A stretch of DNA of 64,000 nt, taken from the IMG/VR virus record IMGVR_UViG_2718217787_000005; one strand, given 5' to 3'. The stretch comes from a virus. Its lineage: Duplodnaviria; Heunggongvirae; Uroviricota; Caudoviricetes. Positions within the stretch are counted from its first letter, which is position 1, and every line of letters begins with the position of its first letter. Shown piece by piece: positions 27,001 through 30,000 of the stretch. The position numbers were made by a program.

Positions 27001-30000
27001 ATTCATGGACATGGCAAAAGCCGAGAGGAAAGAAGAGCGCCGGCGTAAGCGAGCGGAAGCAAAAGCGAAGTAGCCATTACAAAGCCCATCTACTGGTGGG
27101 CTTGATAATGGCTTATACCCTACACGGGATAACTTAACTGATATCCCTTTTAACGGATAAAGGTATTCAAGCCTGACACATCATGCGCTGTATCGTCGCT
27201 GTATTTCCGCATTAACCATGACCGTAGCCCGACGGGGAATTCCTTCTGCGCGAGTGTGCGGGGATAATCAAAAACGATACACACCGGGGTTTACCGCGTA
27301 AACGGAGCGCGGCGTTCTCCCCTCATGGTCGCCCGTCCGGTGCGATGGTGGAAGAAACTGGAATCTGTTCAATAAAAAAACTGCCGTGTTGGAGTCACAG
27401 CAGTAATGTACTGATTGGGTAGAAGATTATTATTGTTATGCTTTATTTTTATTCTATATGGCTGATTATTTCAATTCGGAATTAATACAGCTAATGTCTG
27501 TGAGTTTTTATAAATTCAGCAATATAAAGAAATAGTTATATGAACAGCCATCGCAGAGCATACTGTGTATCATTCTTTTTTATAGTCAACTGACGGGCAT
27601 ATTTTATGTCTGCTGCCAGCTCCCGGCGGCAAGATTCAATGACCCACGCAGAAAAATTTTCTGAACCTTTCTGGTCAAGAGCGATGTTAATTTGTTCAAT
27701 CATCTGGTTTGGAAATCGGATGTTGCGGGTTGTTGTTCTGCGGGGCCGGTTTTTCGATGACATTTTCTTTCCTCTGGTGACAAGCTATATGGCGAGGATT
27801 TTACATGGCTGTGCTTCGTACGTTACCGGGCAGAATCAAAACTCTGAACACCCGGCGGGTGAATATTCTGAAGGGTGAACAGCGTCGTGTCAGTGGCAGT
27901 GCACGTGTTTCCCTCAAGCGTCATATCTGGCTCAGGGATGCCGGGCAGTGCTGTCTCTGTGGTCGTGTGGTTGACCTCTGTGACAGTGAACTCGATCACC
28001 GAATTGCACTTCAGTTCGGTGGTGGTAATGAGGAGACGAATCTCTGGACGCTCTGTACCGAATGCCATCGACAAAAGTCTGCTCGTGAAGCGGCGGGTGG
28101 TATGCCGGACCCGACGCTGCCGGAGGTGTCCGGAGGTCATGGCAGGGCAGACGATATCATCGGACTGTGACCCGCCCCGGGGGGGGGGGGATCATCCGGC
28201 GAAAAAAACGATCGCTCCGGACACCGCCCCCCGTCTCACGCAGAGAAAAAATTCCCGTTTCAGGGCAGTTAACATGTTAACTGGCTGCCCGGGCATTTTT
28301 GCGGTTTTTATCTTTATTATTCAGTTTGTTGTGCGGAAAAAATGTTAACAGGCTTTTTCAGCAAATGTTAACCAGGCAGCAGTTAACATTTGCGGCATGA
28401 GACGCCGGGAAAAATGGGCTGAACCATACCCGGCTGAGTGCGTTCTGGACCCGGGAGGAGGCTGTGCTGACAACGCAAAAACGAAAATTTGCGCTGGCGC
28501 TCATGTCCGGGAAAAACAAAACAGCGTCAGCCCTTGCCGCCGGTTATTCGGCGAAGACAGCCAGGGTTAAAGGCTCGCAGCTGGCAAAAGATCCGGAGGT
28601 GCTTGCGTTTATAGCCCGTAAACAGTGCGAGACGGTGGAGGTGGATGAGGTTCCTGTTTATCGGCAGAAAAAATCAGAGCCGGAGGATAAACCCCGTCGC
28701 CGTGAGGCGGCTGCAATACCACAGCCGGACGAAACAAATCCGGAGATGCCACCGCCCGTGGTGATATCTCCTGGTATTGAGTATATGGAGGACGGTCTTC
28801 CCGATCCGGTGAAAGCGATGGGGCGTCTTCTGGTGGAGAACATTAATACCGACCCCAGGCTGGCGCTGGATGCGGCTTATAAGCTGGCGCAGTTCACGCA
28901 CCACAAAAAAGGGGATGCCGGTAAAAAATCGGCAAAAGGTGACGCGGCGAAAAAAGCGGCTAACCGTTTTGCGGTGCCACCACCACCCCGCCTGGTGGTG
29001 AATAATGATAATGAGGGCAACGGATGATACCTGTGTGGAGCACGGCCTGCCCGGACTGGGCAGAGCGCCTGAAAAAGGGGCTGTCGATTATTCCGGCTCC
29101 GATTTATCCGGAGCAGGCCGCACATGCCCTGGCGATTTTTAAACAACTGCGGATTGTGGATGCACCGGGCAGCCCGACGTTCGGGGAGTCCTGCGCACAG
29201 TGGGTGTTTGACCTGGTGGCGGCCCTGTTTGGCTCCTACGATGCGCAGACCGGTGTACGCCATATCAAGGAAGTTTTTATCCTTATCCCCAAGAAAAACA
29301 GCAAGTCCACGCTGGCTGCCGGGATCATGATGACGGCGCTGTTACTGAACTGGCGGCAGGCGGCGGGCTACACCATTCTGGCCCCGACCGTGGAGGTGGC
29401 GGCTAACGCCTTCAACCCTGCCAGGGATATGGTACGACGGGACGATGATCTGGATGACCTCTGTCAGGTGCAGACACATATCCGGACCATCACCCACAGG
29501 GTGACGGACACCACCCTGAAGGTGGTGGCTGCCGATCCGAATACGGTATCCGGTATCAAGTCCGTGGGGACGCTGATTGATGAACTGTGGTTATTTGGCA
29601 AGCAGTACAAAGCGGAGGACATGTTACGTGAAGCCATAGGCGGCCTTGCCTCCCGCCCGGAAGGGTTTGTGGTGTATACGACCACCCAGTCGAATGAGCC
29701 GCCAGCCGGGGTGTTCAGACAGAAACTGCAGTACGCCCGGGATGTCCGTGACGGCAAAATTCATGATCCGCACTTTCTGCCGGTGATTTTTGAGCATCCT
29801 CCTGAAATGGTGGAAAGCGGGGCTCACCTGCTGATGGAAAACCTCGCCATGGTTAACCCGAATCTCGGTTATTCGGTGGATGAGGCTTTTCTGTACCGGG
29901 AGTACCGTAAAGCCCGGGAGGCTGGTGAGGAAGCATTTCGTGGCTTCATGTCAAAACATGCCAATGTGGAAATTGGTCTTGCCCTGCGTTCTGACCGCTG

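Follow-up and report, generated by a model that had tools for sequence, protein, structure and literature searches.

Comparative sequence assignment of the cos site in the HNH–terS–terL packaging module of a common Shiga-toxin phage

In phage lambda, the cohesive-end site has the order cosQ–cosN–cosB (R3/I1/R2/R1), with bent DNA between the small-terminase sites and IHF at I1, and is followed by the small terminase gene; cosQ is not a homopolymer, and the gpA-type terminase, which has no HNH partner, generates a 12-nt 5′ overhang. The small terminases (TerS) of the SPP1/SF6 family recognize a number of short boxes, set around the cut in DNA that is intrinsically bent; SPP1 and SF6 package by the headful mechanism from pac, with neither cohesive ends nor an HNH partner. 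In HK97, an HNH endonuclease gene (encoding gp74) is followed by cos, terS (gp1), and terL (gp2), with the 10-nt 3′ overhang CGCCGCCAAA and a 49-bp leader carrying one TerS site. HK97 TerS recognizes this single 15-bp A-tract site, not repeats, the minimal site being +15 to +29 and containing the A-tract (PMC11331095); the site lies a short way downstream of the cut, and the motor stalls when TerS occupies it (PMC11331095, PMC9410871). No G-rich element is mentioned in the HK97 packaging literature that we searched, in which cosQ appears solely as a lambda reference, cited for a link between cosQ and the portal. Two relatives of the phage described here have mapped virion ends. The Stx1 phage Lys8385Vzw has 3′ cohesive ends with the cos sequence CGCCCCCCCT, a PhageTerm result given in one sentence with garbled coordinates (PMC7946995), and the distantly related Acinetobacter phage fEg-Aba01 has the 10-nt 3′ end CGCCCCCCAT, mapped by PhageTerm and confirmed with a heat/cool gel (PMC7354433). 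The papers on these two phages and on Pseudomonas phage D3 report the overhang alone, and not the sub-structure of the site.

The stretch analyzed here (the window; 64,000 nucleotides of IMG/VR record IMGVR_UViG_2718217787_000005) matches the Stx2c phage 2851 at 100% identity across a compared stretch of 1,401 bases (27700–29100), and its packaging genes are in the order HNH–terS–terL–protease/MCP–portal. The HNH gene (27805–28170, + strand; Pfam HNH PF01844, E = 7e-7), a packaging-associated HNH gene immediately 5′ of cos, ends with a TGA codon at 28168–28170. Its product is 65% identical to the HNH protein of Salmonella phage SP-016 and 35% identical to that of fEg-Aba01 (E = 7e-14); HK97, Xp10, OP1, D3, phiE125, and fEg-Aba01 each have an HNH gene in the corresponding place. 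BLASTP of the HK97 HNH protein against that of the window gave no alignable similarity. The terL gene (29024–30685, + strand) encodes a large terminase of the HK97 TerL family, containing TerL_ATPase and TerL_nuclease domains, for which the only PDB sequence match is HK97 TerL (6z6d; E = 3e-9, residues 85–534). This protein is 48–60% identical to TerL of Xp10, OP1, fEg-Aba01, and Pseudomonas/Burkholderia phages, and 98.7% identical to that of Lys8385Vzw, a phage 98–99% identical. Between the two genes, terS (28464–29027, + strand) encodes a Terminase_2 protein (PF03592, E = 4.5e-8, residues 2–57) with an N-terminal HTH-type DNA-binding region, weak PDB matches to the DNA-binding domain of SF6 TerS (4zc3, 2cmp), and 54% identity to SP-016 TerS. 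The TerS protein has no detectable similarity to HK97 gp1 (BLASTP E = 3.0), which has no Pfam match, whereas the TerS of the window belongs to Terminase_2 as does that of SPP1/SF6. Therefore, the module joins an HK97-type TerL/cos, having a gp2-homologous TerL and an HNH gene immediately before cos and terS, to a TerS from another family.

Comparison with these systems assigns 28175–28391 as the cos site of this module, an element of an ordinary kind in a common Shiga-toxin phage. We consider it likely that the site is an HK97-type, HNH-assisted cos in three parts, namely cosN, a right-end G element, and a cosB-like array. The first-pass annotation had identified the flanking genes as we find them and had placed a cos region between the HNH and terminase genes, where the homologous virion ends of Lys8385Vzw and fEg-Aba01 indeed map. 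The resemblance to lambda lies in the order of parts along the packaging direction: a last-packaged-side element, a nick site, and several candidate small-terminase sites in both orientations, with possibly bent DNA between them, before the small terminase gene. However, the TerL and TerS families differ from those of lambda, and the relatives have 10-nt 3′ ends, an HK97-like TerL, and an HNH protein; the defined 3′ cohesive ends mapped in relatives likewise set the module apart from headful packaging. Relatives for comparison were taken from two sources: a scan of IMG/VR with TerS gave relatives only at ≥89% identity, and the divergent set was therefore drawn from a genome collection. Phage records searched with the SP-016 core contained no further phage groups with mapped ends, and a literature search with sequence strings gave nothing relevant.

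The cut itself can be predicted from the mapped relatives. The Lys8385Vzw record ends with GGACACCGCCCCCCCT, with the 3′ cos CGCCCCCCCT at the record end, and begins with CTCACGCAGAG, and its cos is essentially that of the window; fEg-Aba01 has the same cos core. By homology to these ends, cosN would be the 10-nt 3′ cohesive end CGCCCCCCGT at 28225–28234 (+ strand), with the top strand nicked after 28234 and the bottom strand between 28224 and 28225. The overhang would thus be equal in length and polarity to that of HK97, but different in sequence. Natural variants of the decamer are present among relatives. It is preceded by a spacer and a cosN-proximal conserved box at 28198–28224 (+ strand; ending with CGATCGCTCCGGACAC), in which the CGAYCGC and GGACACC columns are conserved in a 22-locus alignment, and the GGACACCGC core likewise terminates the genomes of D3 and fEg-Aba01. 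Lys8385Vzw, fEg-Aba01, and D3 share with the window the right-end core GGACAC|CGC(N)CCCC(N)(T/A), the left end (C/T)(T/G)CACGCA..AAAAAATTCCC, and an upstream G run or G-rich block. The cut position is effectively published, and the sub-structure of the cos site is not. A 14-nt inverted repeat (28122–28135/28215–28228) also reaches into this region; because its left arm lies inside the HNH gene and is not seen in SP-016, we treated it as lineage-specific or due to chance.

On the last-packaged side of the cut, the right-end element (28175–28197, + strand) consists of CCCC, G12 (28179–28190), and ATCATCC. The HNH stop codon is followed by CCCGCCCC and then by the run, so that the C4–G12 tract is as the first-pass annotation had described it. 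Besides G12, the window contains no G run of ≥8 and no homopolymer of either G or C of ≥8. A G run was found at the aligned position in 22 of 22 aligned cos regions, including 17 divergent genome loci (TerS 37–48% identical), and was read by eye in one additional locus (L132); the 18 divergent Enterobacterales/Acinetobacter prophage loci have a run of G6–9 followed by TA(TCA). The distance from the end of the run to the right terminus is 42–45 nt in HK97 (G9), HK022 (G9), Xp10, phiE125, fEg-Aba01 (G6), and Lys8385Vzw, and D3 has an interrupted G-rich block in the corresponding place. In HK97, G9 followed by ATCA ends 42 nt from the right terminus, as compared with 44 nt from the predicted terminus in the window. 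The spacer around the run is poorly conserved, while ≥5–6 G are kept at a fixed distance from the terminus across HK97-type cos sites; therefore, the run is assigned as an element conserved at the right (last-packaged) end of cos. A G run or G-rich block ~42–45 nt from the right terminus, which the window has at 44 nt, is a criterion proposed in this analysis and not an established one. The run flanks the cut, as a conserved element, in every HK97-type cos site examined, and we propose that its role may be cosQ-like. We could not find a description of a G-run subsite of HK97-type cos in the literature searched.

The G run had also been suggested to mark cleavage. The G/C-rich overhangs of the HK97-type family, the position of the run in the HNH–terS gap, and its imperfect inverted match to the C-rich decamer (inverted repeat I12) are all in keeping with this suggestion. 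However, the termini of Lys8385Vzw and fEg-Aba01 are at the C-rich decamer, whose start in the window (28225) is 35 bp downstream of the last G, leaving 34 nt in between, and the run is internal in HK97, HK022, Xp10, and phiE125. It is hardly credible, then, that the C4–G12 tract is itself the cleavage site or its immediate marker. The same complementarity between the G run and the C run (I12, I18–20) could mean that their pairing, as a hairpin, a cruciform, or an RNA stem in the late transcript, is the signal rather than the sequence, and Pseudomonas phage vB_Pae_CF53a has a long, near-perfect inverted repeat that spans its whole G8...C8 segment. We regard such pairing as highly improbable: the single-strand fold of 28165–28245 is no better than those of shuffled sequences (z = −1.5; 16 of 200 fold as well), the overhangs of HK97 and HK022 lack a C run although both phages have the G9 run, and no T tract or terminator-like site accompanies the two runs.

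The run was further suspected to be prone to slippage, and its length indeed ranges from 7 to 13 G with a mode of 8 among 42 close relatives and differs between near-identical prophages. Together with the error-prone reading of homopolymers in many sequencing chemistries, and with an IS insertion within the run in PPompW prophages, which shows that the run can be broken in resident prophages, this variation might suggest a functionless hitch-hiker, or a length of 12 produced by sequencing or assembly. Nothing in the window corresponds to the left flank of the ISEc20 insertion in PPompW. Nevertheless, ≥5–6 G are retained at a constant distance from the terminus in HK97, Xp10, phiE125, fEg-Aba01, and the 18 Enterobacterales/Acinetobacter prophages. 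Because this distance is conserved across the HK97-type cos family, the run is neither an accident nor a mere artefact, and a run without function is very unlikely; the exact length of 12 G may be inexact. As the homopolymer is hypervariable, differences in tract length should not be used as strain markers without long-read or amplicon confirmation.

Downstream of the cut, the first-packaged end begins with a conserved box, CTCACGCAGAGAAAAAATTCCCG (28235–28257, + strand), with an A6 tract at +12 to +17 (28246–28251). The Lys8385Vzw record begins with CTCACGCAGAGAAAAAATTCCCG and the fEg-Aba01 record with CGCACGCACAAAAAAAATTCCC, and the left-end consensus CTCACGCACAGAAAAAAT is >80% conserved across 22 loci. 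HK97 likewise has an A/T tract in the initial 30 bp of its left end, the region to which its TerS binds.

The leader between the predicted cut and terS is 229 bp in the window and contains five GTTAAC motifs, as compared with a leader of 49 bp and one TerS site in HK97. GTTAAC occurs 17 times in the window against 11.4 expected, an unremarkable count, but 5 of the 17 are clustered in 28268–28387 (at 28268, 28276, 28344, 28367, and 28382). The largest cluster per 125 bp in 400 first-order Markov simulations was 2, and the Poisson probability of five in one 125-bp window is 6e-11, or ~3e-8 after correction for all windows. Judged from the flanks, three are + strand ATGTTAAC (28274, 28342, and 28365) and two are GTTAACAT (28268 and 28382), in agreement with the two orientations noted earlier, and all five are copies of a 13-mer, AMATGTTAACWGS, at +31 to +157 from the cut. 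The first two, S1 (28265–28277, − strand) and S2 (28272–28284, + strand), form the perfect palindrome CAGTTAACATGTTAACTG (28265–28284; inverted repeat I14), which is invariant in 35 sequence variants. A T-tract-rich spacer follows at 28296–28335 (+ strand; TTTTT at 28296 and 28305, then TTTATTATT), which is possibly intrinsically bent DNA and has substitutions and frame-breaking 1–2 nt indels among relatives. S3, AAATGTTAACAGG (28340–28352, + strand; direct repeat families D1 and D2), retains its ATGTTAAC core unchanged across the 35 variants. S4 (28363–28375, + strand) and S5 (28379–28391, − strand) constitute a convergent inverted pair, GCAAATGTTAAC-N9-GTTAACATTTGC (28363–28391; inverted repeat I3, 12 nt, 100% complementary), which is unaltered even in L017, the most divergent variant, despite heavy substitution in the flanks. 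All five cores are thus constant in the 35 variants; substitutions and indels are found in the spacers. A 24-codon ORF from the old ATG (28274–28348) was rejected as a gene, since the frame-breaking indels inside it show that it is not conserved among relatives. No + strand promoter-like site or terminator was found in the HNH–terS gap.

In SP-016 (GTAAACATGTTAAC) and 16 other loci, the sequence aligned with the S1/S2 palindrome has the terS start codon as its central ATG. Read from this alignment, the predicted ancestral state is one palindrome with the terS start at its center. In the window, terS starts with GTG CTG ACA, a degenerated copy of ATG TTA ACA. Sixteen of 18 enterobacterial relatives use TTA as the N-terminal Leu codon of terS, as do the Pseudomonas and Burkholderia phages, whereas just 0–1 of the other 6–10 Leu codons of these genes are TTA; the loci in which the start reads CTG or CTA at this codon (the window, a Pantoea locus, L147, and a Proteus locus, L145) have GTTAAC copies upstream instead. 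In fEg-Aba01, three AAGTTAAA direct repeats take the place of the ATGTTAAC 13-mers between the cut and terS. The invariance of the copies, the choice of the TTA codon, and the relocation of the copies point to a cis site, whose most probable ligand is the Terminase_2-type TerS, and the 13-mers are likely candidate docking sites for the small terminase. The earlier comparison of the repeats to terminase-binding elements stands insofar as they are constrained cis elements located where cosB-type sites are expected; their binding by TerS is what we infer. As part of the 13-mer is coding in most relatives (ATG TTA ACA), some of the conservation is at the protein level. No match to the IHF consensus WATCAANNNNTTR within 1 mismatch was found in 28171–28463, only T tracts, so that the analogy with lambda cosB is incomplete.

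It is also conceivable that TerS reads the A-tract box at +3 to +23 as in HK97, and that the 13-mers serve another purpose, such as terS autoregulation, or another phage or host protein. The minimal site of HK97 TerS includes the A-tract, conservation across the region is highest in the block CTCACGCACAGAAAAAATTCCCC, the ancestral palindrome extends over the start codon and Shine–Dalgarno region of terS, and the sole promoter-like match in the HNH–terS gap, on the minus strand, is composed of the GTTAAC repeats themselves. On the other hand, the TerS of the window, with its HTH N-domain, is in another family than HK97 gp1, and the Terminase_2 members SPP1/SF6 G1P bind repeated boxes in bent DNA. 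Moreover, the 13-mers stayed invariant and were multiplied after uncoupling from the start codon, which translational autoregulation does not explain, and the motif is kept across hosts with codon usage strongly against TTA. We therefore regard this alternative as unlikely and prefer the 13-mers as TerS sites; the A-tract box, which is equally well conserved, could be the actual TerS site or a further one.

In the proposed mechanism, TerL and the HNH protein would nick the strands 10 nt apart at cosN to leave the 3′ overhang CGCCCCCCGT, with the genome left end at 28235 and packaging proceeding rightwards through terS. The right-end element, a G run (G12 here, with a minimum of about G5–6) followed by ATCA, would be the last DNA to enter the head. 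By analogy with lambda cosQ, TerS bound just past the cut may stop the motor, placing the G-run segment inside the TerL ATPase/portal channel, where the run may help TerL/HNH to pause or to take position for the terminal cut; motor pausing and docking of HNH or TerL fit equally with this proposed role. Extra Gs lengthen the run away from the cut, so that the critical spacing is unchanged and slippage (7–13 G) would be tolerated. The cosB-like array, in which an abutting inverted pair is followed by a T-tract spacer, then one site by itself, and finally a convergent pair, would be recognized through its 13-mers by the HTH domains of a ring-shaped, Terminase_2-type TerS, anchoring the terminase for initiation. 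In the E. coli Stx-phage lineage, ~190 bp with three extra copies appears to have been interposed, and the start-codon copy to have decayed to GTGCTGAC. Taken jointly, a tentative reading, to which we would give somewhat less than an even chance, is that a run of ≥5 G that ends 32–35 bp upstream of the bottom-strand nick, on the last-packaged side, may be a universal third subsite of HNH-dependent HK97-type cos, a cosQ-like termination element read by the translocating TerL/portal or by HNH, and that the Terminase_2 TerS proteins of this module may recognize a TTAAC-containing 13-mer that ancestrally overlapped their own start codon.

Of 5,426 complete E. coli genomes, 1,251 have prophages with this cos type, a single genome holding as many as 8 copies, and its carriers include many Stx1, Stx2a, and Stx2c phages. 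The exact cut, together with the likely recognition elements, would indicate which co-resident prophages and satellites can be cross-packaged, and a known cut would allow correct orientation of genome records and the design of cos-plasmid transduction reporters for Stx phages. The conserved G run would also be a cheap mutational target in HK97 in vitro packaging, bearing on termination signalling in non-lambda cos phages.

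Over 27700–29100, the sequence matches Enterobacteria phage 2851 (Stx2c, genus Pankowvirus) at 100% identity, and BP-4795, phage 1717, and dozens of Stx1a, Stx2a, and Stx2c prophages at 97–99%. The gene order is DUF3950 (minus strand), HNH, terS (Terminase_2), terL (TerL_ATPase and TerL_nuclease), a prohead protease–major capsid fusion, and portal. The sole PDB sequence match of TerL was HK97 TerL (PDB ID: 6z6d; E = 3e-9), and its phage relatives at 48–60% identity include Xp10, OP1, fEg-Aba01, and several Pseudomonas and Burkholderia siphoviruses. The 75-aa DUF3950 gene (YlcI/YnfO-type; 27536–27763) runs against the late operon between a KilA-N gene and HNH. 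The prohead protease (Peptidase_S78) and major capsid protein form one fused 645-aa ORF (30749–32686) preceding the portal gene (32898–35399), an order unusual for an HK97-like head module. The 833-aa portal protein has a repetitive C-terminal extension encoded by an in-frame 162-bp tandem repeat (34425–35017; 3.7 copies, 97% matches). The HNH ORF (27805–28170) ends with a TGA stop at 28168–28170; in phage JLK-2012 (NC_049942, 306–836; locus L046), HNH is annotated as 531 bp rather than 366 bp and runs into the cos region.

Directly 3' of the HNH stop, CCCGCCCC is followed by G12 (28179–28190); no other run of eight or more G, nor any other G/C homopolymer that long, occurs in the 64 kb. GTTAAC is not over-represented window-wide (17 found versus 11.4 expected); 5 of the 17 copies lie inside 120 bp (28268, 28276, 28344, 28367, and 28382), first-order Markov simulations (n = 400) giving a maximum of two per any 125 bp and a Poisson estimate for the cluster being ~3e-8 after correction. 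The C4–G12 tract and the repeats are thus as the first-pass annotation described them. The cut was placed from two independent data sets on relatives. Lys8385Vzw, an induced Stx1 phage with a TerL 98.7% identical to that of the window, was assigned 3' cohesive ends by PhageTerm, with cos CGCCCCCCCT at the genome end (PMC7946995); its record finishes with ...GGACACCGCCCCCCCT and begins with CTCACGCAGAGAAAAAATTCCCG. Acinetobacter phage fEg-Aba01 (TerL 52% and HNH 35% identical) has 10-nt 3' cohesive ends CGCCCCCCAT, determined with PhageTerm, confirmed by a heat/cool gel (PMC7354433), and annotated on its record, which ends with GGACACCGCCCCCCAT and starts with CGCACGCACAAAAAAAATTCCC. Because both pairs of ends align column for column with the window, the predicted overhang is CGCCCCCCGT at 28225–28234, with the left virion end from 28235. 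It is very probable, on this homology, that the stretch is a cos site cut at the predicted position, as the first-pass annotation had supposed for the region; its further suggestion that the G tract marks cleavage was rejected, since the mapped relatives put the overhang 34 nt downstream of the end of the tract. Overhang variants among close relatives are CGCCCCCCGT, CGCCCCCCCT, and CGCGCCCCGT, plus forms shorter by one C. The G run is flanked by the arms of a 14-nt inverted repeat (93% complementary), the left one (28122–28135) in the 3' coding end of HNH and the right one (28215–28228) abutting the cut; no counterpart was seen in Salmonella phage SP-016, and the repeat may be lineage-specific or due to chance.

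Among 42 close relatives (IMG/VR prophage contigs and phage records), the G run is 7–13 long (mode, 8) and preceded by CC or CT, the 12 G of the window being at the long end of the range. This spread means either genuine hypervariability of the tract or difficulty in sequencing it, and it agrees with the earlier description of a slippage-prone homopolymer. A divergent set of 20 loci (TerS 37–48% identical to that of the window) was collected from one-genome-per-species data, covering Kluyvera, Atlantibacter, Erwinia, Serratia, Enterobacter, Kosakonia, Rouxiella, Phytobacter, Pantoea, Citrobacter, Proteus, Buttiauxella, and Acinetobacter; every locus complete at this point has G6–9 at the same aligned column, usually with TA(TCA) next, and a poorly conserved spacer 3' of the run. 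In mapped HK97-type ends, the run stops 42–45 nt short of the right terminus (HK97 and HK022, G9; Xp10, G5; phiE125, G6; fEg-Aba01, G6; Lys8385Vzw, G7), as does G12 from the predicted terminus of the window. D3 has GGGGTGGGGCGGG at this position, and its genome end, GGACACCGCGCCCCCA, has the same core as the window. From these alignments, the run does not appear dispensable despite its length variation. Seven PPompW prophage records carry the IS110-family ISEc20 inside the cos G run (in PPompW_132418, LC567822, locus L003, at 1546–3004; equivalent window position, 28179–28190), with a right junction of ...AAGTAAC/GGGGGATCATCC and a left junction of ...CCTTTCGGGGGGG/TGCCCC. These records lack the HNH and lysis genes upstream, nothing in the window corresponds to their left flank, and the prophages, with cos split, are probably unpackageable.

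Relative to the cut, the G run is on the side packaged last, where slippage would lengthen it away from the cut and leave the ATCA-to-nick spacing unchanged, so that length variation would be tolerated. In HK97, the arriving motor is stalled by TerS that occupies its site immediately past the cut (PMC11331095, PMC9410871); the HK97 packaging papers examined, these two included, mention no G-run element. With the motor so stalled, DNA 30–45 bp upstream of the cut would be inside the TerL/portal channel. Mutations in lambda cosQ, the last-packaged-side element, are reportedly suppressed by portal changes. By analogy, the G run could be a cosQ-like element pausing or positioning the packaging machinery, a role that we propose tentatively; the main alternative is that it serves as a docking site for the HNH protein. 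A hairpin of the G run with a C run is unlikely as the signal, the fold z being −1.5 and HK97 having no C-run partner. In the homologous cos of Pseudomonas phage vB_Pae_CF53a (MK510966; loci L153/L150), across the record end and start, runs of G8 and C8 form the outer arms of an extended, almost perfect inverted repeat (GGTGGGGGGGGTGAAAATATCCGGCTTCGC / GCGAAGCCGGATATTTTTACCCCCCCCACC), and this cos is far more symmetric than its E. coli counterpart.

When flanking bases are included, each of the five GTTAAC sites upstream of terS is a copy of one 13-mer, AMATGTTAACWGS: S1 (28265–28277, − strand), S2 (28272–28284, + strand), S3 (28340–28352, + strand), S4 (28363–28375, + strand), and S5 (28379–28391, − strand). 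S1/S2 together form a perfect 18-bp palindrome, and S4/S5 a convergent inverted repeat of 12 nt. Salmonella phage SP-016 and 16 divergent loci have no array and a single near-palindrome, GT(A/T)AACATGTTAAC, ~35 bp past the cut and centered on the ATG that starts terS. S1/S2 is the same palindrome with its offset kept, and terS of the window starts 190 bp further downstream at GTG CTG ACA, judged from its sequence to be a decayed copy of ATG TTA ACA; the interval holds three further 13-mers and a T-tract spacer. Four observations argue for a function of the motifs at the level of DNA. Across 35 distinct variants, all five 13-mer cores are invariant, and the spacers show substitutions and 1–2 nt indels, which also rule out the 24-codon reading frame that begins at the old ATG. 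Of 18 enterobacterial relatives, 16 use TTA as the N-terminal Leu codon of terS, as do the Pseudomonas and Burkholderia phages; among the other 6–10 Leu codons of these genes, TTA occurs just 0–1 times. Where this N-terminal codon is CTG or CTA (the window, Proteus locus L145, and Pantoea locus L147), GTTAAC copies are found upstream instead, those of L147 being two of GTTAACCC and one of GTAAACCC. Finally, as a parallel in a distant relative, fEg-Aba01 has three direct repeats of AAGTTAAA in the cut-to-terS interval.

Known members of the Terminase_2 family bind repeated boxes in bent DNA. TerS of the window belongs to this family; it weakly resembles the SF6 DNA-binding domain, and no sequence relationship to HK97 gp1 was found. 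Given this habit and the DNA-level constraint, we favor the 13-mers as putative TerS (cosB-like) sites, a reading that is reasonably probable; the earlier remark that the repeats resemble terminase-binding elements is plausible to this extent, binding being what we infer. In the rival reading, TerS would recognize an A-tract box at +3 to +23 bp from the left virion end, and the 13-mers would do something else, e.g., autoregulation. This box is strongly conserved, and its position is analogous to that of the TerS site of HK97 (+15 to +29; PMC11331095). An IHF consensus, a + strand promoter, and a terminator were not found in the gap upstream of terS.

This cos resembles the HK97 type in TerL family, adjacent HNH, 10-nt 3' overhang (by homology), and G run, and it is paired with a Terminase_2 TerS; in its multiplied sites it resembles lambda cosB. 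The cut site has effectively been published for the near-identical Lys8385Vzw, and we found no description in the literature of a family-wide G-run subsite, of a TTAAC palindrome over the terS start, or of palindrome expansion in the Stx-phage lineage. Of 5,426 complete E. coli genomes, 1,251 carry the 400-bp cos region (28100–28500), with 2,964 occurrences in all and up to 8 copies per genome; because several co-resident prophages share one cos type, cross-packaging is possible. The element is an ordinary one, with a sub-structure that is useful and testable.
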